This document shows positions 53,294 through 63,259 of a DNA stretch of 64,000 nt, piece after piece. The notes under the pieces are model-generated. The model saw only the letters and a program-made list of their open reading frames with translations, did no database searches and was not told the origin of the DNA. Position 1 is the stretch's first letter, and each line of letters opens with the position of its first letter. The stretch comes from an uncultured Bacilli bacterium (GTDB taxonomy: Bacteria; Bacillota_I; Bacilli_A; RFN20; CAG-826): the NCBI GenBank assembly GCA_905235515.1, contig CAJOLV010000003.1, forward strand, positions 5,680-69,679, in the 5' to 3' direction. A program made the position numbers and the translations under genes.

Positions 53294-53422
53294 AGCAAGG
53301 CTCCTATCTGCATAAAATATATAGCATTTTAGTTAAATAATCAATCAATAAGTGGATATATTTGCCTAATTTGACGCTGTTTTTAGTTAAATAAAAGCAC
53401 CAAGCTCTACCACATTAATTTT

Positions 53423-53698
53423 TTGTCATTTTTTAACGCTAAATTAAATGTGACAAAATTAATAACATTAATCATCTTCACATTAACATGCTGGGGGGCA
53501 CCATTATGTATTCAAATACCATTTCTAATTATTGATTTATTGTTAGAGAAAAAGGCTATCAAAGTAATAGTTAAAATAATCTTTGTAATAATATCTTTGA
53601 TTCTTTTCTTTTTGGTTCCTAGTTCAATAAGAGTTTCAATAGCTTTATTCTTTCTTCAACTGCTAATTGAATATCTTGTTTCTGATAAATTTAGCTAA
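53423..53698 (+). CDS. Hypothetical small hydrophobic protein (doubtful)
   Basis: 91-aa ORF that is almost entirely hydrophobic and AT-rich. No RBS or domain. Could be an AT-rich artefact. Confidence 0.2.
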   Translation: MSFFNAKLNVTKLITLIIFTLTCWGAPLCIQIPFLIIDLLLEKKAIKVIVKIIFVIISLILFFLVPSSIRVSIALFFLQLLIEYLVSDKFS

Positions 53699-53812
53699 TT
53701 TATTTATTCAATTGTAAATACCAAATTTATAGATGTCTTTAACGTACTGTAACAATCCCTAATTTTTCAAAATGCAAAAATATTCATACTGTAACAATCC
53801 CAATTAGAGGTG

Positions 53813-53879
53813 TGTTAAACATATATCTATATTATTCTATAATATAGTGTGTTAAGTTTTAGATACGCTGATAATAGTA
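53813..53879. repeat. Copy A of a repeated ~67-bp promoter/operator-like element containing a perfect 9-bp inverted repeat CTATATTAT-tct-ATAATATAG
   Basis: GTTAAAC-ATATAT-CTATATTAT-TCT-ATAATATAG-TGTGTTAAGTTTTAGATACGCTGATAATAGTA is about 80% identical to copy B at 56954-57020. It carries a -35-like TTAAAC and a -10-like TATAAT. Confidence 0.6.
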
Positions 53880-54035
53880 AGAAAAAATGCCTTTAGATTA
53901 AAAGCTGGCACGACTATATTAATCCAAATGGTATAAATGCGAGTAAAATTGCGCTTGATTGTGAAAAAGATTATTAACCGACTATAATAATCCCGTATAA
54001 AAACAGAATAATTTCGGTGTGCCTAGAAAAGATTA

Positions 54036-54770
54036 TTATTTAAATGCGTTCTTATCAAATGTTATCAATTTATATCCGTGAATTTGAAAATAAAAATCGT
54101 TAACATAGTTTTTAATCCATTCAACCTTTGAAATTGAACTTTCATTATGATTGTCATGGGCTAAGATGGCAGAATTTATGATATTATTAGCAACTCTATT
54201 TTTTAACGCTTTTCGAATCTTTTCATTAAAGAAGAATAGCGGATTTACACACACGGATGAATCTGAGTCTTTAAAAAACGGTTTATCAAATTGCCTTGTA
54301 GGCATGGATTCGATATCAATATTTTCTAAAACATTTTTATCAATAATTGTTCTAGGGTATATAGCCACTTTGGATTCAAGCTCATAAGCTCTAATTAACG
54401 ATTCACCTAAAACTATTTCAGAATCAATATGAAGCAACCCTTTAACGATTGCACCACGAACAAGTAATTCATAAACTGATAAACATTCTACAGCAAAACC
54501 AGCAGCAACATTAAAAAGCGAATTGAGTGATTCGGTTGGATTATCACCATTAATTTTCACAGCAAATAAAAAATTATCTGAAAAAGATCTAATAATCACA
54601 TCTTTTGAACGATGTTTTTTTATAAAATTGCTGACAAGCCAAAGCTTAGAAAAAGTGCTTTTTTCATCTTTTTTTAAGCTTGCCTTTGTACCCAAGGCAT
54701 CAAAATATGCAACGTAATACTCTTCACACGTCAATTCTTTATCTGGTAAGCCGTTGATAATCAAGCTCAT
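54036..54770 (-). CDS. Hypothetical protein (244 aa), third gene of the AbiEi-like/ATPase operon, with weak class-III nucleotidyl-cyclase-like sequence features
   Basis: Translationally coupled to the upstream ATPase. Segments YFDALGTKA and, about 40 aa later, IRSFSDNFLFAV resemble the two metal-binding Asp strands of cyclase/palm domains. VLGESLIRAYELES resembles the cyclase signature VWGDTVNLASRMES, but the key N and R are not conserved. No confident family assignment. Confidence 0.5.
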   Translation of the reverse strand: MSLIINGLPDKELTCEEYYVAYFDALGTKASLKKDEKSTFSKLWLVSNFIKKHRSKDVIIRSFSDNFLFAVKINGDNPTESLNSLFNVAAGFAVECLSVYELLVRGAIVKGLLHIDSEIVLGESLIRAYELESKVAIYPRTIIDKNVLENIDIESMPTRQFDKPFFKDSDSSVCVNPLFFFNEKIRKALKNRVANNIINSAILAHDNHNESSISKVEWIKNYVNDFYFQIHGYKLITFDKNAFK

Positions 54771-56011
54771 TAGTTAAACCGCCTATTCTCTTCCATGAAC
54801 TTCATTAAGTTTGCATGTATAATTCCGTTTCTCTTTTGGATTAAGAAATCTGTAGTCAATACATACTTAGGAAAATTATCTTGAATCTTTTCTAAAGGAG
54901 CATACTCTCTATTTTCTGTATCTTCACTGCTTAAGATAGTATATGCAACTTGAACATAAGAATAATTTAAGAATAAGTCTTTCAAGATAAAATCACATTC
55001 TAATGCGCCAATTCTACCAACTGATACATCATAGTTCTTAGATTTGGCATAAAGATATGCAACATTTTCCAGTGCGGGTCCGTAGTTAATTTTGCTATTT
55101 GGATTTGTAAATTGTGCAAACGATAAGTCGGCTAGATAGTATTTCTTTTCATTTTGAAACATCTTTCTGGACTTCATATCGAATCTGCCACATTCATAAA
55201 TAATCTTGGCATCAATCAGATGTTGAATATACTTCGCTACTGTGCGGAATTGGATGGCAATGCCATTCTTGTTTAAATCTTTAACAATGTTATTAATGCT
55301 GGTTGTGGCTCCATAATTATTAATGATGTAATCTCTAACCAAATTAAAGACTTCGACATTCTTGATTTTTACTCGCTTCTTAATGTCTTTCTTAAAGATT
55401 TCGTCCACTATTTCACTAATGTATACTTTTTTAGCGGCGATATCAGGTAAGAACAGTGTTCTTGGAAAACCGCCTTCAACAATATAGTGTTCTAATTCAA
55501 TAGAAAGATTTCCGTCCACTGGCATCTTGTAGAATTTTTTCATGTCTAAGTATTCGTAGAAATTAAGAGGAAAAACCTCAAATTCAAGATATCGTCCAGT
55601 AAGATGCGTCATCAATTCTCCGCTGAGAAGATAGGAATTGCTACCAGTTATGAAAATTGAATAATCTTCTTCAGCTCTAAATGCATTTATCATTCTCTCG
55701 AAATCTTTAACATTTTGAATCTCATCAATAAATAAATACTTAGTGCCTTTTATTCCTTTGGATAATTTATCAATCAATTCTTCAAGAGCATCCGGAGTTT
55801 TAATCTTTGTATATCCTCTTTTATCTAAATCAATATAAATAATATTGTTAGGATTCACTCCACCTTCAACTATTTCCTCACTTATCATTTGCATGATGGA
55901 AGATTTTCCGGATCTACGAACACCAGTAATAACTTTAATTAAATCATTTTCATGGTAAAAAGGTCTGATTCTAGATAAATAATTTTCTCTTTTGTAAAGC
56001 TTCTTTTTCAT
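54770..56011 (-). CDS. COG1373-type AAA+ ATPase (AAA_14 domain + C-terminal DUF4143)
   Basis: Walker A GVRRSGKSS about 35 aa from the ATG at 56011 and Walker B LFIDEIQ. The C-terminal region has the DUF4143 length and pattern. The ORF-track start at 56065 adds 18 aa with no RBS. Confidence 0.8.
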   Translation of the reverse strand: MKKKLYKRENYLSRIRPFYHENDLIKVITGVRRSGKSSIMQMISEEIVEGGVNPNNIIYIDLDKRGYTKIKTPDALEELIDKLSKGIKGTKYLFIDEIQNVKDFERMINAFRAEEDYSIFITGSNSYLLSGELMTHLTGRYLEFEVFPLNFYEYLDMKKFYKMPVDGNLSIELEHYIVEGGFPRTLFLPDIAAKKVYISEIVDEIFKKDIKKRVKIKNVEVFNLVRDYIINNYGATTSINNIVKDLNKNGIAIQFRTVAKYIQHLIDAKIIYECGRFDMKSRKMFQNEKKYYLADLSFAQFTNPNSKINYGPALENVAYLYAKSKNYDVSVGRIGALECDFILKDLFLNYSYVQVAYTILSSEDTENREYAPLEKIQDNFPKYVLTTDFLIQKRNGIIHANLMKFMEENRRFN

Positions 56012-56118
56012 ATTTTCTGACTCTATATTATCTATTTTTCTAGTTAAATGCAAGTTATCGCACAATAATTTACAATATTTTAAGATTTTAGTGCCATAAC
56101 CGCCATTTATCTCACATT

Positions 56119-56745
56119 TTATAGTCCTAACAGCAGATTGTGGATATTATTTTCGATTCCTAAATTATCTAGTACGGTCTTCAATCTAACAAATGTTATC
56201 TGATTGTATTCGGCTAAAAGATGTGTCGTAATATATTCATCTTTATATCCTTTGGCGAGTTCATTTAAAACTTCGATATTCTCTAAGCATTCAATCTTTG
56301 TTTGTTGGCTTAATATTTCAAGAAGCTCTCTAAAGGATCTATTGTCTTTAGTTATCATTGTTTTAGTTGGAATAATCTTGTTATTGCCAATAGCCTTATT
56401 CCTTTTTACATAGCACTTAATCTCAACGCAACTAGGCGCATCTTCTATTAATCTATATTTATATAATAAGGATAGGCCTGATAGCATTCCGTAGTTATTA
56501 TCAACATAGAAATCTACCATTGCTTTTTGAATATCTTCTTCAGTTGGATTCTTGCCAATATAATAAACACCTTTACCAATCTGGGTCATTTTAAGAACAG
56601 CGTTAGCTCTAGTGAGATATTGCCTAAAAGAATCGAAATCATTTGTTTGAAAATAGTGGGTAGCTAAAATCTCCACATCAAATATGGTGTTCTGATGTGT
56701 TCTCCCATAATTAATAATTTGTTGTACGATAGATAAATTTTCCAT
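56119..56745 (-). CDS. AbiEi-family-like regulator/antitoxin (winged HTH)
   Basis: 208 aa. RANAVLKMTQIGKGVYYIG (the xGVY motif of the AbiEi N-domain) and YGMLSGLSLLYKYRLIED (the GxLSGxSA...GL-like motif). First gene of an operon with the AAA ATPase. Confidence 0.5.
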   Translation of the reverse strand: MENLSIVQQIINYGRTHQNTIFDVEILATHYFQTNDFDSFRQYLTRANAVLKMTQIGKGVYYIGKNPTEEDIQKAMVDFYVDNNYGMLSGLSLLYKYRLIEDAPSCVEIKCYVKRNKAIGNNKIIPTKTMITKDNRSFRELLEILSQQTKIECLENIEVLNELAKGYKDEYITTHLLAEYNQITFVRLKTVLDNLGIENNIHNLLLGL

Positions 56746-56953
56746 ACACCTATATTATATATAAATGCAATTGCGAGACAAGTTAAAATATCAAAAATTA
56801 CTTGATACTTTACTTTATATATTTTATATATAATAATGAGTATATCAAAATACTACTGTCTCGCAAGTCCCCATTGTCTTTCACCGGCTGTATAAATACC
56901 AATTTTATAAATGAATAAAAAGTTTTCGACTATAATAACACCATCAAAAAGCA

Positions 56954-57020
56954 TGTTAAATCTATATACTATATTATAAATAATATAGTGCGTTAATCTC
57001 AAGATACACTGATAATAGTA
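56954..57020. repeat. Copy B of the ~67-bp palindromic promoter/operator-like element (CTATATTAT-aa-ATAATATAG)
   Basis: GTTAAATCTATATA-CTATATTAT-AA-ATAATATAG-TGCGTTAATCTCAAGATACACTGATAATAGTA. Lies about 210 bp upstream of the AbiEi-like gene start. The minus-strand reading gives -35 TTGAGA, an 18-nt spacer and -10 TATAAT. Confidence 0.6.
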
Positions 57021-57248
57021 GCCTTCTTCAAACTGCAATATGCTGTTTTTAATAAGTGTTTCACTTTCAACAGTATTTGATTTGCAAAAAAGTTATCAAT
57101 ATAATACTAGTCCATAAAAAAGAAGTGTTAATTAAACTAATAATCTCATTTCTATTTTCAATTTGAGACTTTTTAAGATGATTAGATAATTGGCTTTCAA
57201 ATAATGAATCTAAATCGTTTGACATTCTTTTTTATTATATAAACTCAA

Positions 57249-58349
57249 TTAAAATGATCCAAATTTCGGATTCTTTCTAGCATTCATGTATGCGCATTTT
57301 CTTAATTCACTATATAGTTCCTTATCTTGAAGCGCTAATTGAATTTTTTGTTTATATTTGCCAAAAAAACAGGTTGAATCAAGTATCTCAACTGAGCCAA
57401 TATCGTTATTGAACAATATTTTGGTCGCCAAAACATAAACTTTTGTTGCCATTTTAATGAGCGCTTCACTAGAAACACTTCCGCCTAAAACATAGGCATT
57501 AAAACCATTTAATCCTTGCATTAAAATTTTATATTCATCTTTTGGACCAAACTCACCATAATCAATAATGTTTGAACAAGTCAAAATCGTGTCTTCCAAA
57601 CAATCTTCGACTTTATTGACATTCTTATAATAAGGGATCGAATTAGTTATTAATTTACGATATGTTTTAGAAATTAATTCAAAATCAGTTGAATAATCGA
57701 GAAGAGTAGAAACATCATATAACTGTTTAATTATCTCAATATGTTTTGGTCTTTCATCTTTATAATAGTCGGTGAATTTAATACCAGATGTATGAGGGGC
57801 AAATGCCACTAATTTGTCGCCAATTAATTCATCAACGGTTGGTAAATTAACTTTATAAAACGGCTCTTCAAAAACAAATAACTCATTATCTATATTTTTA
57901 ATTTGAACAACAGAATAAGTATTGTCTTCAAAAACAATATCTAGCAAAACAAAAGACTCCTCAACTTCTTCGTCGATTATGGATTCATAATTAAACTGAA
58001 AATGGGCTTTGTCTACACCTGGTTTTGGTGGTCTTATTTGTTCATTAATTTCGCTAAAGAAATCAGACTTAATGTTTTTAATTTTGTTGATAATTTCTTC
58101 TTTTTTGCTATTTGGACACAAAATGTCTATATCAATAGATAGACGATTCAACTTATTCAAGAGAAGCAAAATCGAAGTGCCGCCTTTAAAAATAAAATCG
58201 ATCTCGTTTTCCACTAGTGTTTCCAAAACTTTAAAAGCATATGCAAGTTTCTCTAAATGTTCATTACTTACATTTTGAGTTTTGGCTATTTTATTTATTC
58301 TTTCTTTGTCGAAGTTTTTATTGCTAATCATATCGTATTGCCCTCTCAA
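57249..58349 (-). CDS. AbiEii/AbiGii-family nucleotidyltransferase (type IV TA toxin)
   Basis: 366 aa. The FIFKGGTSILLLL...RLSIDIDIL pattern matches the AbiEii GGT(S/A)L and RxSxDxD motifs. Overlaps the upstream partner by 26 nt. Confidence 0.8.
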   Translation of the reverse strand: MRGQYDMISNKNFDKERINKIAKTQNVSNEHLEKLAYAFKVLETLVENEIDFIFKGGTSILLLLNKLNRLSIDIDILCPNSKKEEIINKIKNIKSDFFSEINEQIRPPKPGVDKAHFQFNYESIIDEEVEESFVLLDIVFEDNTYSVVQIKNIDNELFVFEEPFYKVNLPTVDELIGDKLVAFAPHTSGIKFTDYYKDERPKHIEIIKQLYDVSTLLDYSTDFELISKTYRKLITNSIPYYKNVNKVEDCLEDTILTCSNIIDYGEFGPKDEYKILMQGLNGFNAYVLGGSVSSEALIKMATKVYVLATKILFNNDIGSVEILDSTCFFGKYKQKIQLALQDKELYSELRKCAYMNARKNPKFGSF

Positions 58350-59218: not shown

Positions 59219-60508
59219 TCATTTGCCATAATGCAGTTTAACACCATCAATTAATACTGATTTAAATTTTGTAAATTGATAATAATACTCCCAAATATAT
59301 AAAATAGCGGTAAATAGATCAACACACATCTTTCCAAATTCCAAAAAAGAAGTTTTATATGTTTTTGTGCCGTTTTTTGTTTTATTTATAAAAGTGACTT
59401 CTTGATTAAGACCATCGGTAAAAATAGAATTATGGCCTTCTGCATTTCTAATAATGTTATTTAGAACGCCCCTTATTCCATCAAACAAATCGGAATTGTT
59501 ATTAGTAAAGTATTCATATTTGTTATATTTTGAGCCCATGCCATTTAATCTTTCGTTGAAATCATATATTCCTGTATCAAAGTGGTTATATGTTCCGTTA
59601 GTTTCAATGTTATAAAGCCCAACCAATAAATCTATTGAATCGCAAAGAAGTTCAAATCCCTTTTTATACAAAACCGCTAAGTCATCAATAGATATTGTTG
59701 AGACCCCTTGTTTTGTAAAATCAATATTACCGAATTTATCAAAGTTATCATAAACAGGCAAAAGCTGGTCAACACATTTGATGTAGTCGATTATGTAAGA
59801 AGGCATCTTAAAAAGATACGTTTTGAAGTAATCATTATCAAGATTGTTTAAATAATCTTTTACAGACAAAACATGCTTTTTAACTATGCGTCTAGTCTTT
59901 TCATTCATTATTTGATACATATTGTTAAAAACACCTTCAGGCATTATTGGTTGTAGCAAAGAATTTACATAATGTTTTGTTGCTAACATAGCATCTAACT
60001 CATTGATTATGTTGTTTGCATTATTGTGTTTATTGAGTTCGACTAAGATATTCTCGTTCGTGTTTAAAAAATACTTTCTAATTAAATCCACTCTATTGGT
60101 GCTTAATAAGTTATAAATGTTCTCAATTTTATTAATGTAAATATCAGATTGATTAACAAAATATAAAAGATTTTGCATCCTTTGGTTCTTAGAAGGAGTA
60201 GTAAAACCTCTTCTTACAAACATGCTCATTTGAACATCAGTTGTTTCATCTCTTTGTTTATACTTATCGATTAAGAATTCTGTTGCTAGTTCGAGTACAT
60301 AATTATAATCTTTATTGTTTGTTTCTGTGGCGCCGATAATGTTTTCGCTTATCGTGGTGTTTTTATTGTCGATCACTATTGTTCCAGAAATATGGCAATT
60401 ACATTTTGGACAATAGATGCTTACAGGAATATTAAAATAACCAACTTGATATCTAAGTCTTAATAAACAATTACAATAATTGCATTTATAAATACTATTT
60501 CTAACCAT
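59219..60508 (-). CDS. Zinc-ribbon protein with C-terminal HEPN-like RX4H motif (possible Abi-type effector)
   Basis: 429 aa. N-terminal CNYCNC...CPKCNC zinc ribbon. C-terminal IIRNAEGHNSIF fits the HEPN R-x4-6-H motif. Sits 58 nt downstream of the DGQHR gene on the same strand. Confidence 0.45.
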   Translation of the reverse strand: MVRNSIYKCNYCNCLLRLRYQVGYFNIPVSIYCPKCNCHISGTIVIDNKNTTISENIIGATETNNKDYNYVLELATEFLIDKYKQRDETTDVQMSMFVRRGFTTPSKNQRMQNLLYFVNQSDIYINKIENIYNLLSTNRVDLIRKYFLNTNENILVELNKHNNANNIINELDAMLATKHYVNSLLQPIMPEGVFNNMYQIMNEKTRRIVKKHVLSVKDYLNNLDNDYFKTYLFKMPSYIIDYIKCVDQLLPVYDNFDKFGNIDFTKQGVSTISIDDLAVLYKKGFELLCDSIDLLVGLYNIETNGTYNHFDTGIYDFNERLNGMGSKYNKYEYFTNNNSDLFDGIRGVLNNIIRNAEGHNSIFTDGLNQEVTFINKTKNGTKTYKTSFLEFGKMCVDLFTAILYIWEYYYQFTKFKSVLIDGVKLHYGK

Positions 60509-60566
60509 GTGTGATTATTTCAAAATTTGCTGGCCATTAAACGGGTGACAAACTTGCATAAATGTT

Positions 60567-62366
60567 TTACAAACTATCTCTATTTTGCTTGTTAATTGCA
60601 GGAATGATTAAGGCCTTTGCAAATTTACTATATTGTGCTCCTGCATATGGAAAATTAGTATTATCCGAAGAAAAATCTAAATTAAAATCTCTAAAGGCGT
60701 TCAAATAAAAATCATAATTTTTTGGTCCTTGTGTGTTAGCAAGCGTCTCTTTAAAAGCAATGATAAATGCGTTCAAAGAAATGACTTTCAACAAGCGAGA
60801 GTTTTTATCCCAATAATTTAAAAATCTTCCTTTAATTGCTTTAAAATAAGTTCGCAATGAATTAGCACAATATTTTATATAGTCCTCAATATCTTTGCTT
60901 TGCTCTAGAACAAAATCATTACTATAGTTATTCTTTTTTAACCAATACTTATAAAGGCTTGTTGGCACATTCTTTGCCACAAGAAGACTAGACATAGCGT
61001 ATTGTATGATTGATGCGATTTTTATAGGAGCGTCATCAGTCTTAGATAATTGAAACATATTTTCAAAAGGTGCATCGTTATTTAACAATTCTATAACTCT
61101 TCTAGAAACAGCTTCCCCAGAAGTTGGATTCATAATTGCTTGAATCTGAATGAGGGTATCTGCATCAACAGGTTTAGCGTTTTTATTAATTGACACAAAC
61201 AATTCGCTTTCAAACCTTCTCCTTTCGGACAAATGTTTGTATTTTTCATTATCTGGATAAATAATGCCGGTGACTAATAAATTGTATGAATCACGCATTG
61301 GTTTAATTAATTGTTCATCCGTATTATCTTTGTCACAATCTTCATAAAACGCAAAAACACGATGTTGACCATCAATAATGCCAATCGAATTATATTCAGT
61401 TGGAATCTCCATCATAATATTATTATCAAAGCGAACAACATTATCTAATATCACTGTTTCTCTATTGTCTTTGTTAAAGAAGCGAACTCCATCTGGCAAT
61501 GTGACAATAATGTTGTTAATAAATGTTGTTTTCTTTGCAATAACAAAATCTCTAATAGATTTGATTCTTTTAACGGTTAATAATCTTTGATACATATCTG
61601 GTTGTTTTTCCCAACCATCTTTTCTTAAAACATATGAATATTTAATTAAATCGATTGGTTTCATCATAAAAGAAACCATTCTTATGCCGTCCTTGTATCC
61701 AGTCACAGAATCTGGATAAATGATCGGAGTAACTATTGGTAAATTAACTGAATTCCCGGAAGGGTCTGGTTTTCCAATATCTTGAATTCGTAATTTTAAA
61801 TATTTAAATAATTCATATTTGAAAGATGCTTTAATGCTTTTTGACATCAAACAAAAATAACTAAAAGTAGATTTATCAATAAGATTTAAATGTGTGTACC
61901 TTTCAATATCTTCCTTGATATATCTTGTGATTCCATATTCGAAATATAAATAATAAATATTAAACTCTTGTTGTGTGTATCTTTGAAGTGTCTCTTCGCT
62001 CGGGAATTTATCTCTTAAAAGTTTGATAAACGAGGCTTTTTCCGTTTCTCTTATAATTTTAGACGTTTCTTCTTTTTCTAATTTGTGGTTTTTATTAAAC
62101 GGCATACCAGCCGCCAAAGCTTGTTCTTTTTCTTTGACAAACCTTATTGTGTCTTCACAAATGATGATTATGTTTTCGTAGATGAAACAGTGATCTAATT
62201 CATTTTGCTTTCCACCGAGAAGAAATTGCCAACCCTTAACACTTAATTTTGTAAAACCAGATAAAACAAATATGTTCTCAATTTGTTTAGAAAATGCATC
62301 TCTTTTCTTTTTCTCCGCAAGTTGTTCTTTGGTTAGTTTTGGCTTTTTGTTCTTTTTCTTTACCAT
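60567..62366 (-). CDS. DGQHR-domain protein (DndB-like, ParB/Srx-fold)
   Basis: 599 aa. The hallmark IIDGQHRVFAF motif is followed by an FVSINKNAKPV-type conserved segment. Has a lysine-rich N-terminus. The start overlaps the stop of the upstream methyltransferase by 7 nt. Confidence 0.8.
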   Translation of the reverse strand: MVKKKNKKPKLTKEQLAEKKKRDAFSKQIENIFVLSGFTKLSVKGWQFLLGGKQNELDHCFIYENIIIICEDTIRFVKEKEQALAAGMPFNKNHKLEKEETSKIIRETEKASFIKLLRDKFPSEETLQRYTQQEFNIYYLYFEYGITRYIKEDIERYTHLNLIDKSTFSYFCLMSKSIKASFKYELFKYLKLRIQDIGKPDPSGNSVNLPIVTPIIYPDSVTGYKDGIRMVSFMMKPIDLIKYSYVLRKDGWEKQPDMYQRLLTVKRIKSIRDFVIAKKTTFINNIIVTLPDGVRFFNKDNRETVILDNVVRFDNNIMMEIPTEYNSIGIIDGQHRVFAFYEDCDKDNTDEQLIKPMRDSYNLLVTGIIYPDNEKYKHLSERRRFESELFVSINKNAKPVDADTLIQIQAIMNPTSGEAVSRRVIELLNNDAPFENMFQLSKTDDAPIKIASIIQYAMSSLLVAKNVPTSLYKYWLKKNNYSNDFVLEQSKDIEDYIKYCANSLRTYFKAIKGRFLNYWDKNSRLLKVISLNAFIIAFKETLANTQGPKNYDFYLNAFRDFNLDFSSDNTNFPYAGAQYSKFAKALIIPAINKQNRDSL

Positions 62367-63259
62367 TTGAAATCCTCCGGTTTCTGAGCCACCTTTTGAG
62401 TCAAATCTGGTTCAATCACTGGAACATCTGGCCTATACTCAATCGTTCCTTCAATAGCCTTTGCAATACGTTCTTCTGCAATTGCTACATACTCTTTTTT
62501 GAGTTCACATCCAATAAATTTTCTTTTTTCCATTACGCAAGCAACCGCTGTTGTTCCACTACCAAAAAAAGGATCTACAACAACATCGTTCTCATTTGTA
62601 AGGGCTCTGATTAAACGTTGTGGAATTACTATTGGAAATTGGCACGGATGATCCGTTTTTTCAACGTGATTAGCTTTGACATTTGGAATTTCCCAAACAT
62701 CAGAAGGGTTTTTGCCTAAAGGATTGCCACTGAATTGACCGGCTTTTTTTCCTCTATAATATTTTTTGCCAGGATATTTTTGAGGAACCCTAATCATATC
62801 GAGATTAAAAGTATATTCTTTTCCTTTGGTGCACCAGAGAATTGTTTCATATCTACCACTGAGTCTTTTTTCGGCATTAAGGCCATGACCAAAAGTCCAG
62901 ATTATCCTGTTCCTTAAAAGCATTTGTGAGTCAGGTTCAAGATTCTCATTAATTTTTTGAATGATATTATAAATAATAATATCTAATGGAATAGATACTG
63001 AATCCTTAATATGAAATCCAACTTGCCAACACAAACTGCCACCTTTTTTTAATATACGGATAGACTCTCTAAGAACTTTCTCATTCAATGATGAAAAGGA
63101 CTTGATGTCATCTTTAATATTTTCATATTCTTTACCCATGCAATATGGCGGAGAAGTTACAACTAAAGAGACAGATTCATCATCAATTTTCTTTAATATT
63201 TTAAGGCAATCTTCGTTATATAGCCTTATATCATCCGATTGGAAACTAATTGTTTTCAT
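62360..63259 (-). CDS. DNA methyltransferase, beta-class amino-MTase (SPPY motif IV; probably N4-cytosine or N6-adenine)
   Basis: 299 aa. Motif IV TSPPY near the N-terminus and motif I DPFFGSGTT near the C-terminus, which is the beta-class order. ParB-like/MTase-associated context. Confidence 0.88.
   Translation of the reverse strand: MKTISFQSDDIRLYNEDCLKILKKIDDESVSLVVTSPPYCMGKEYENIKDDIKSFSSLNEKVLRESIRILKKGGSLCWQVGFHIKDSVSIPLDIIIYNIIQKINENLEPDSQMLLRNRIIWTFGHGLNAEKRLSGRYETILWCTKGKEYTFNLDMIRVPQKYPGKKYYRGKKAGQFSGNPLGKNPSDVWEIPNVKANHVEKTDHPCQFPIVIPQRLIRALTNENDVVVDPFFGSGTTAVACVMEKRKFIGCELKKEYVAIAEERIAKAIEGTIEYRPDVPVIEPDLTQKVAQKPEDFKW

Follow-up and report, generated by a model that had tools for sequence, protein, structure and literature searches.

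A probable mosaic cargo cassette in a Bacilli defence island carries a PDC-S01-type ATPase and a predicted cyclase-fold protein

The window analysed here is a 64,000-nucleotide (nt) stretch of contig CAJOLV010000003.1 (GenBank assembly GCA_905235515.1) from an uncultured Bacilli bacterium, and it carries, between a Fic gene and an AbiE module, three consecutive minus-strand genes that we name A, B and C (Table 1). An earlier note on this DNA had grouped the three genes as one candidate defence system, and the list of open reading frames (ORFs) of the window confirmed all three where it had placed them. Its description of the individual parts was largely borne out. Gene A has the reported AbiEi-type motifs, GVY and GxLSGxS, in the form of GKGVYY and YGMLSGLS, and matches AbiEi models of PADLOC; the gene that follows it is not an AbiEii gene but an ATPase gene, in which a Pfam profile search found AAA_14 and DUF4143; the 244-amino-acid (aa) product of gene C belongs to no family modelled in Pfam, NCBIfam or PADLOC; and the Fic and AbiE neighbours are present in a defence island. 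The repeat said to bracket the genes is also real, with CTACTATTATCAGYGTATCT occurring twice in the 64 kb against 0.01 occurrences expected by chance. Translational coupling, which the note had also reported, applies to B and C, where the stop of B and the start of C overlap as TAATG (54772-54768), and not to A and B, which lie 107 nt apart with a conserved promoter in the gap. What gave way was the idea of one system of fixed architecture, because A and B have separate promoters, relatives of B lack C and A is truncated in related loci. The locus is probably a mosaic cargo cassette in a defence island rather than one three-component machine.

Table 1. Coordinates of features in the window and, where a locus number (L) is given, in related loci.
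Feature	Coordinates	Strand	Description
Gene A	56745-56119	-	208 aa, AbiEi-like
Gene B	56011-54770	-	413-aa AAA_14 + DUF4143 ATPase
Gene C	54770-54036	-	244 aa, predicted divergent class III cyclase-like palm domain, then C-terminal helical domain
B promoter in the A-B spacer	56053-56025	-	TTGCAT (56053-56048), 17-nt spacer, TAATAT (56030-56025)
A promoter/operator region	56746-56874	-	called from cross-locus conservation
A upstream region, window	56746-56881		about 136 nt
A upstream region, L072	5865-6000
A upstream region, L073	5862-6000
A upstream region, L074	4199-4334
Left repeat	56875-57021	-	partial copy of the cassette-end element, fused to the A promoter region
Right repeat	53998-53734	-	complete cassette-end element of about 265 nt
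Right repeat, L072	10689-10954
Right repeat, L073	11022-11286
Right repeat, L055	5352-5620
Avs2, L073	1594-5790		E=3.8e-138
PDC-S35 TIR, L074	3567-4130
AbiD, L004	2003-2977
B paralogue, L064	338-1612		33% identical to B
Fic protein	53293-52241	-	PADLOC SoFic, E=6.4e-36
91-aa ORF	53423-53698	+	predicted to be very hydrophobic
AbiEii	58349-57249	-	overlaps its own AbiEi partner (DUF6577)
AbiEi (DUF6577)	59085-58324	-	canonical overlapping pair with AbiEii
Three-gene row	59219-63259	-	429-aa protein, 599-aa DGQHR protein, N6_N4 DNA methylase
C-family gene beside Prok-E2_E operon, L001	5904-8771
C-family gene beside Prok-E2_E operon, L002	4129-6996
C-family gene with Beta_protein, L046	5599-8325
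C-family gene with Beta_protein, L047	5785-8410
C-family gene with Beta_protein, L049	5674-8359

We compared the locus with related loci (numbered L; proteins of the C family are numbered P) and found that the linkage of the three genes is not conserved among loci related to B, to C or to A. No homologue of C was present at 17 metagenomic loci that carry relatives of B at 54-94% identity, about 11 of which hold enough downstream DNA for one to be seen. In L055 (93% identity in B), the sequence that immediately follows B can be aligned, at 77%, with the window sequence that immediately follows C, which makes C a clean insertion or deletion at the junction of B with the terminal repeat. Searching from the side of C, we used 47 genome loci of the C family from very diverse phyla including archaea, with no full-length match closer than 31-35% identity. 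None of these loci holds an intact B-C pair, and a B-like gene lies nearby at one of them, L025, which was rejected as an independent pair because the C copy there is a remnant that has lost its N-terminus, in a reversed gene order. One locus, L004, does repeat the pair with both genes intact (95% protein identity for C and 95% for B, with 87% DNA identity across the region), and it is too close to the window to count as independent evidence. It is thus unlikely, given the many relatives of B without C and the lack of an intact pair among the C-family genome loci, that B and C are a newly assembled two-gene system in which B would sense infection and activate C, or would read a nucleotide signal made by C. 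The TAATG overlap, the fact that the B promoter is the only evident one for C, and the preservation of the pair in L004 do argue for such a system, as does the frequent tight packing of C-family genes, which have a same-strand gene within 60 nt upstream in 13 of 46 loci (and downstream in 14 of 46). However, these adjoining genes belong to many families, and no recurrent partner gene was found across the 46 loci. The nearer relatives of C likewise have other companions or none: P0003 (67% identity to C) is overlapped on its upstream side by a DUF7662 gene and P0007 (61%) by a 77-aa ORF, and P0006 (58%) stands alone beside a divergent GH3 gene.

Gene B on its own is accounted for by a named candidate. 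The ORF list starts it at a TTG at 56065 (431-aa ORF), whereas its homologues share the start at 56011 (ATG, MKKKLY), for a product of 413 aa. It matches Pfam AAA_14 at 1.9e-34 and DUF4143 at 1.1e-7, and, end to end, the PADLOC model of PDC-S01 (PDLC04787, E=6.7e-132, residues 16-426 of the 431-aa ORF against profile positions 3-408 of 412). The earlier statement that the locus matches no named system is thus partly wrong. PDC-S01 is a single-gene candidate for phage defence, from a set of 145 that accompanied the 'embedded defence' study (Payne et al. 2024, bioRxiv 10.1101/2024.01.29.577857), and later surveys place it among the most frequent defence calls in prokaryotes (PMC12988326, PMC13356809). 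B has intact Walker A (GVRRSGKS) and Walker B (LFIDEIQ) motifs and its own promoter, and its relatives occur without A or C in most loci. It differs from PDC-S01 in that C is coupled to it here, that an AbiEi-like gene lies ahead of it, and that its C-terminus of about 70 residues reads ExDF...(V/F)QVA where (D/E)xK is expected. DUF4143 is listed among the PD-(D/E)XK families (PMC3424549). The QVA variant is common to the B clade and is also kept in the B paralogue of L064, and the nuclease-like domain of B may be catalytically altered, judging from these residues.

A promoter scan of the region found 29 candidates against 25.3 expected, which is not above chance, and our promoter calls therefore rest on conservation across loci. 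The promoter in the A-B spacer is kept in eight loci, even where A is absent or reduced to a remnant, indicating that B is its own transcription unit; the ATG of B lies 13 nt downstream of the TAATAT box.

The genes that travel with A also change from locus to locus. An intact A is followed by B, a Ppl-like AAA_21 gene (787 aa) and a 92-aa ORF in L072, by B and a 420-aa ORF in L074, and by a Schlafen-type AlbA_2/HATPase_c_4 protein and a PrimPol-helicase in L073. Only the 3′ end of A remains ahead of an intact B in L055 and L069, and in L004 this remnant, with an AbiD gene in place of the 5′ part, precedes intact B and C. Since B is a full-length 413-aa ORF in all three loci with a truncated A, B does not depend on A as a partner or antitoxin. 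No A was found near relatives of B at 73% identity or below, and the complete A-B-C trio was seen in the window only. It is accordingly hard to credit that A and B form an AbiE-like toxin-antitoxin pair, with the ATPase in place of the AbiEii nucleotidyltransferase and C as a passenger: the intact B beside a truncated A speaks against a toxicity of B that A would have to restrain, no A was seen with the more distant B relatives, and the separate promoter of B contrasts with the bicistronic abiE operon (PMC3985639). The arguments for such a pair are the match of A to AbiEi hidden Markov models, the inverted repeat over the A promoter, which resembles that of AbiEi autoregulation (PMC7319586), and the adjacency of A, or of its remnants, to B in six loci beyond the window.

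We then examined the repeats that bound this variable stretch, which are the most constant feature of these loci. The right repeat contains four direct repeats of the form GGATTnnTAyAGTcGG, starting at 53994, 53926, 53801 and 53759, with conserved spacings of 68-69, 123-125 and 42 nt, around a central palindrome, TTAACACACTATATTAT..ATAATATAG. It has a sharp end, GTTAAAGACA, beyond which every locus differs. With 77-87% identity, it closes the cargo in the window, L004, L055, L072 and L073. The left repeat consists of a palindromic core, CTACTATTATCAG...TTAACGCACTATATTAT, two direct-repeat (DR) motifs (56942-56926 and 56900-56884) and an AAAGACA end (56881-56875). In L072, L073 and L074, too, the last two direct repeats and AAAGACA (the DR3-DR4-AAAGACA junction) precede A, and in the window the left repeat also includes the palindrome. 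The two repeats lie in direct rather than inverted orientation, align over about 150-200 nt and are only 70-85% identical, so they do not come from a fresh duplication. Within the window the direct-repeat motif is confined to them, and 610 kb of other loci gave three background matches. The cassette-end element was found only with gene A or its remnants.

The genes outside the repeats differ between loci, with polysaccharide biosynthesis in L072, Avs2 in L073, a PDC-S35 TIR gene in L074 and AbiE in the window; the outside gene of L055, which by sequence alone is adenylosuccinate lyase-synthetase-like, we take to belong to purine biosynthesis. Because the outside genes differ, we read the unit of left repeat, A, cargo and right repeat as a movable or recombining cassette. 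Defence genes were found at three A-headed cassettes (Avs2, PDC-S35 TIR and AbiD; Table 1), and the A-headed cassette evidently lives in defence islands of several genomes. No recombinase was seen among the profile-scanned or Pfam-listed genes of the window and the related loci, in which no dedicated search for one was made.

The cassette-end element could be a recombination site, an iteron-like binding array or a regulatory region. We folded four copies of the right repeat on both strands with RNAalifold, and a structured RNA was rejected, as the folding energy was weak, the covariation term was positive and at most one compensatory pair appeared. Conserved short blocks with variable spacers and no covariation fit protein-binding DNA better than RNA. 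An attC-like integron site was suggested by RYYYAAC-like and GTTAAAG motifs and was dropped, because the motifs are short, the DNA is AT-rich, the element has direct repeats rather than an imperfect palindrome, and no integrase was seen. The right repeat had no blastn match in the plasmid and phage collections; a single exact match in viral contigs was treated as chance, since it lies in unrelated sequence with no match to A, B or C.

Gene A matches the PADLOC AbiEi model PDLC02251 (E=1.7e-15, residues 15-206) and, more weakly, seven further AbiEi models. It has no match in Pfam, the AbiEi families included, or in NCBIfam, and no pairwise similarity to the AbiEi of the window's own AbiE module or to the AbiEi of L069. 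Its homologues comprise 21 full-length sequences at 73-92% identity and additional truncated ones, all metagenomic. The AlphaFold2 model, built from a shallow alignment, has a predicted local distance difference test score (pLDDT) of 63 and is confident for residues 1-85 only, in which the order of helix, strand, two helices and hairpin is that of a winged helix. A Foldseek search with the model returned nothing significant, with the AbiEi structure 6y8q at rank 4 (E=1.6).

The region of about 136 nt upstream of A is 88-92% identical in L072, L073 and L074, where the A coding sequence is 79-86% identical. Within it lies a perfect inverted repeat of 11 bp, whose arms, TTGCGAGACAG (56866-56856) and CTTGTCTCGCAA (56782-56771), are separated by 73 nt, and the right arm overlaps the -35 box TTGTCT (56781-56776) of a TTGTCT-16-TATAAT promoter. 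The -10 box ends at 56754 and the ATG follows 8 nt downstream, so the A mRNA is nearly leaderless. All four loci with an intact A keep the inverted repeat. Autoregulation through inverted repeats in the promoter has been described for AbiEi (PMC7319586), and A is by analogy presumed to be an autoregulated DNA-binding protein that would bind this repeat. In addition, the upstream region folds as RNA with z=-4.7 relative to shuffled sequences, varies too little for a covariation test and has no Rfam match; its role might go beyond that of an operator, as it would in a structured leader or a small RNA.

Gene C, the third member, turned out to belong to a large family that lacks a model. It has no match in the 2025 Pfam-A, NCBIfam 20 or PADLOC 2.0 models, and matches in full length a PHROGs family of unknown function (phrog_23933, E=9.7e-14). 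A word-indexed search gave 19 relatives, and a profile search of 1.84 billion cluster representatives gave 14,182 at E<=1e-3, 9,138 at E<=1e-10 and 1,407 at E<=1e-30. At 50% identity the family thus comprises at least 9,000 clusters, found in bacteria, archaea and phages. Over the core, the best 150 representatives match no model of Pfam, NCBIfam or PADLOC; a few of them carry an N-terminal HTH_3 domain, and one of the 150 has a weak PycC match (4.4e-4), whereas the window's own C matches no PycC model.

The earlier note had seen faint nucleotidyl-cyclase or palm-like motifs in C, and these proved to be real at the level of structure prediction. The AlphaFold2 model of C has a pLDDT of 89 and a predicted template modelling score (pTM) of 0.86. 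Foldseek with this model gave 44 matches at E<=1e-3 in the Protein Data Bank (PDB), with E from 2e-5 and template modelling (TM) scores of 0.41-0.49, and the 50 matches listed, these 44 among them, all belong to the class III adenylyl or guanylyl cyclases, such as 5o5l and 1wc4, or to a uridylate cyclase of Pycsar, 8jsz (E=8e-5, TM 0.49). In a viral structure library, the named matches at E<=1e-2 are mostly guanylate cyclase or GGDEF proteins. A profile search of C against PDB sequences found nothing significant, with adenylate cyclases at E of about 2 only, and the relationship to cyclases is therefore one of fold.

The residues conserved in the family are D24 (in FDxLGTK), F63-S64-D65 in a beta-hairpin, R105-G106, G122, E132, P139-R140, D168, D170, K215 and W218, among which D24, D65 and R105 show little or no variation across 150 diverse representatives. 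By secondary-structure order, beta1 ends with D24, the beta2-beta3 hairpin has D65 at its tip (FSDN) and beta4 begins with R105-G106, and a GxxLxxAYxLES helix is also present. Judged by motif and secondary-structure order rather than by superposition, D24 and D65 would be the metal-binding aspartate pair and R105 the phosphate-binding arginine, at the positions they hold in cyclases. Class III cyclases have a helix after beta5 with the pattern VNxAxRxE, which carries a transition-state Asn/Arg pair. In a motif-level alignment, the corresponding consensus of the C family, GxALxxAYxLES, lacks a conserved Asn and Arg. YPR, DxD and KxxW are invariant motifs particular to the family, which also has a helical domain at the C-terminus.

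Five C-family proteins (P0021, P0022, P0025, P0035 and P0039, 475-539 aa) are tandem duplications. In P0021, P0025, P0035 and P0039, one half keeps D24, G27, D65 and R105 and the other half lacks all four; these degenerate halves retain the structural glycines and YPR, and three of the four retain DxD. In the second half of P0022, D24 and G27 are gone and D65 and R105 are kept. Pseudo-heterodimers are known for class III cyclases. The tandem pattern is what a pseudo-heterodimer would show, and at the level of sequence it supports a catalytic role of these residues and a dimeric enzyme. On the predicted structure, C would be a dimeric palm-domain enzyme that uses a nucleoside triphosphate (NTP) with two metal ions; its substrate, product and role in defence would be those of the scheme given below.

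We next surveyed the neighbourhood of the C family, by assigning Pfam families to 150 ORFs within two genes of a C homologue at about 42 non-redundant loci. The most frequent neighbour was Methylase_S (HsdS, 7 ORFs), followed by N6_Mtase, AlbA_2/HATPase_c_4 and AAA_21 (4 each), HsdM_N, Fic, Beta_protein and SMC_N (3 each), and AAA_15 with an OLD TOPRIM, DUF4391 and SNF2 (2 each). The C-family gene lies between hsdM and hsdS in six loci and adjoins SoFic in L003, and a recognisable defence neighbour is present in at least 17 of 46 loci, a suggestive count that has no matched control. A non-defence role for B and C, as regulatory or signalling proteins in a variable region, with C for example a nucleotide-signalling enzyme or sensor domain, would suit the extreme abundance of COG1373-type genes, the HTH_3 domain that some C-family members share with transcription factors, and the ordinary neighbours (a symporter, GH3) of many C-family loci. 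We consider it improbable, because defence genes, those of restriction-modification included, are the commonest neighbours of the family, Avs2, PDC-S35 TIR, AbiD and Ppl-like genes occur as cargo or flanks of the A-headed cassettes, and the island in the window contains SoFic, AbiE and a DGQHR protein with a methylase.

Two further arrangements were seen around the C family. In L001 and L002 the C-family gene is divergent from an operon of a 79-aa protein, a Prok-E2_E protein and a ThiF-JAB fusion, which is a bacterial ubiquitin-like conjugation set. In L046, L047 and L049, from Bacteroidota/Ignavibacteriae, the C-family gene is followed by Beta_protein (PF14350), whose start overlaps the C-family stop, and a conserved gene of about 250 aa comes next, in convergent orientation. 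No other multi-gene arrangement was seen to recur in the family.

The single three-gene defence system of the earlier note, in which A would be regulator or antitoxin, is very improbable, since the common strand, the single repeat-bounded cassette in a defence island and the A-B adjacency in L072 and L074 are set against a full trio found in the window only, an A that is truncated in the closest relative (L004), separate promoters for A and B, an A that also heads the unrelated AlbA_2 protein in L073, and a B that stays intact without A.

Taken together, these results suggest a mosaic cargo cassette that would work as follows. From left to right it consists of the left repeat, A, the cargo and the right repeat, and related strains would keep A and the repeats and swap the cargo. 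A, expressed from its own promoter, would repress itself by binding the inverted repeat over its -35 box. B would be an autonomous PDC-S01-type ATPase with an AAA+ module, a winged helix and a PD-(D/E)xK-like C-terminus, and may act as an ATP-dependent nucleic-acid sensor or effector. C would have been inserted between the stop codon of B and the cassette-end repeat and would be translated from the B transcript. Its two putative metal-binding aspartates and the arginine would bind an NTP, from which it may make a cyclic or otherwise modified nucleotide product, or which it may simply deplete, acting as a stand-alone defence or abortive-infection gene. As a bolder and rather doubtful extension, the C family could comprise widespread single-gene anti-phage enzymes on a divergent class III cyclase fold, acting without a dedicated effector through a toxic or signalling nucleotide or through NTP depletion, and C could at the same time ride an undescribed cassette in which an AbiEi-like gene precedes exchangeable cargo between direct-repeat-rich recombination or protein-binding ends.

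Several points weigh against the mosaic cassette with a stand-alone C. The codon overlap of B and C, together with the intact state of both genes in L004, could mean a young functional partnership, and the recurring adjacency of A and B, with an intact A in three loci (L072 and L074 among them) and with remnants in three (L004, L055 and L069), leaves room for regulation of B by A. ORF calling in the related loci was crude and simply took the longest ORF. C may not be a cyclase, as in the motif-level alignment its helix lacks the conserved Asn and Arg, and it could instead be a ligand-binding regulator, since some family members carry the N-terminal HTH_3 domain. The neighbourhood counts of the C family come without a matched background control. 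The activities of A, B and C are putative assignments from sequence, and PDC-S01 is itself a candidate.

Comparison with known systems places A and C at some distance from their nearest counterparts. A resembles AbiEi of AbiE in its profile matches, its predicted N-terminal winged helix and the inverted repeat over its own promoter, but no AbiEii lies next to it, the AbiEii of the window has its own DUF6577 partner, A lacks a Pfam AbiEi match, and it is truncated in relatives in which the downstream gene stays. A is also reminiscent of BrxR/CapW (PMC9122601), being small, predicted to carry a winged helix, and placed with its conserved operator ahead of defence cargo that varies; it differs in coming from an unrelated family without a WYL domain, control of the cargo by A is putative, and B has its own promoter here. 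Judged by its model and motifs, C shares with class III cyclases and the Pycsar cyclase PycC the beta1 aspartate, the hairpin aspartate, the RxG strand, the GxxLxxAxxLES helix, a dimer-like tandem pattern and the setting in a defence island. In contrast to them, it has no sequence match to Guanylate_cyc, to PycC models or to solved structures, its helix appears by motif-level comparison to be without the conserved Asn/Arg, and it adds the YPR, DxD and KxxW motifs and the C-terminal helical domain. Unlike in Pycsar, no gene for an effector that binds cyclic nucleoside monophosphates lies near C, and the non-coding right repeat comes next.

The surroundings of the cassette are those of a chromosomal defence island, since the genes of the window below about 52 kb are metabolic. 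Beyond the AbiE pair lies a row of a 429-aa protein without a family match, a 599-aa DGQHR-domain protein (TIGR03187 at 2.6e-24, with weak DpdB/DndB matches) and an N6_N4 DNA methylase, which may together make up a defence module based on DNA modification, with one unassigned member. The 91-aa ORF lies on the opposite strand in the gap that separates the right repeat from the Fic gene; it has no family match and may not be a real gene. The window contains no tRNA gene, and integration linked to a tRNA was therefore dropped. An Rfam scan of 53300-57400 gave nothing at E<=1, and a known RNA in the intergenic regions was rejected.

What had been proposed as a three-gene system is largely explained by what is already known, as B is the named candidate PDC-S01 and the trio is not conserved. 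The trio need not join the list of defence systems, and B is a gene that PADLOC would flag in any case. A literature search found no description of the C family or of the A-headed, repeat-bounded cassette, and these are what is new here: a large, unmodelled, cyclase-like family that recurs inside type I restriction-modification operons, and the architecture of the cassette. C is a plausible new stand-alone defence enzyme. If it defends, an effector-less enzyme on a cyclase fold would be added to the nucleotide-based immune repertoire, and the repeat-bounded, A-headed cassette with its interchangeable cargo is a concrete case of defence-gene shuffling in uncultured low-GC bacteria.

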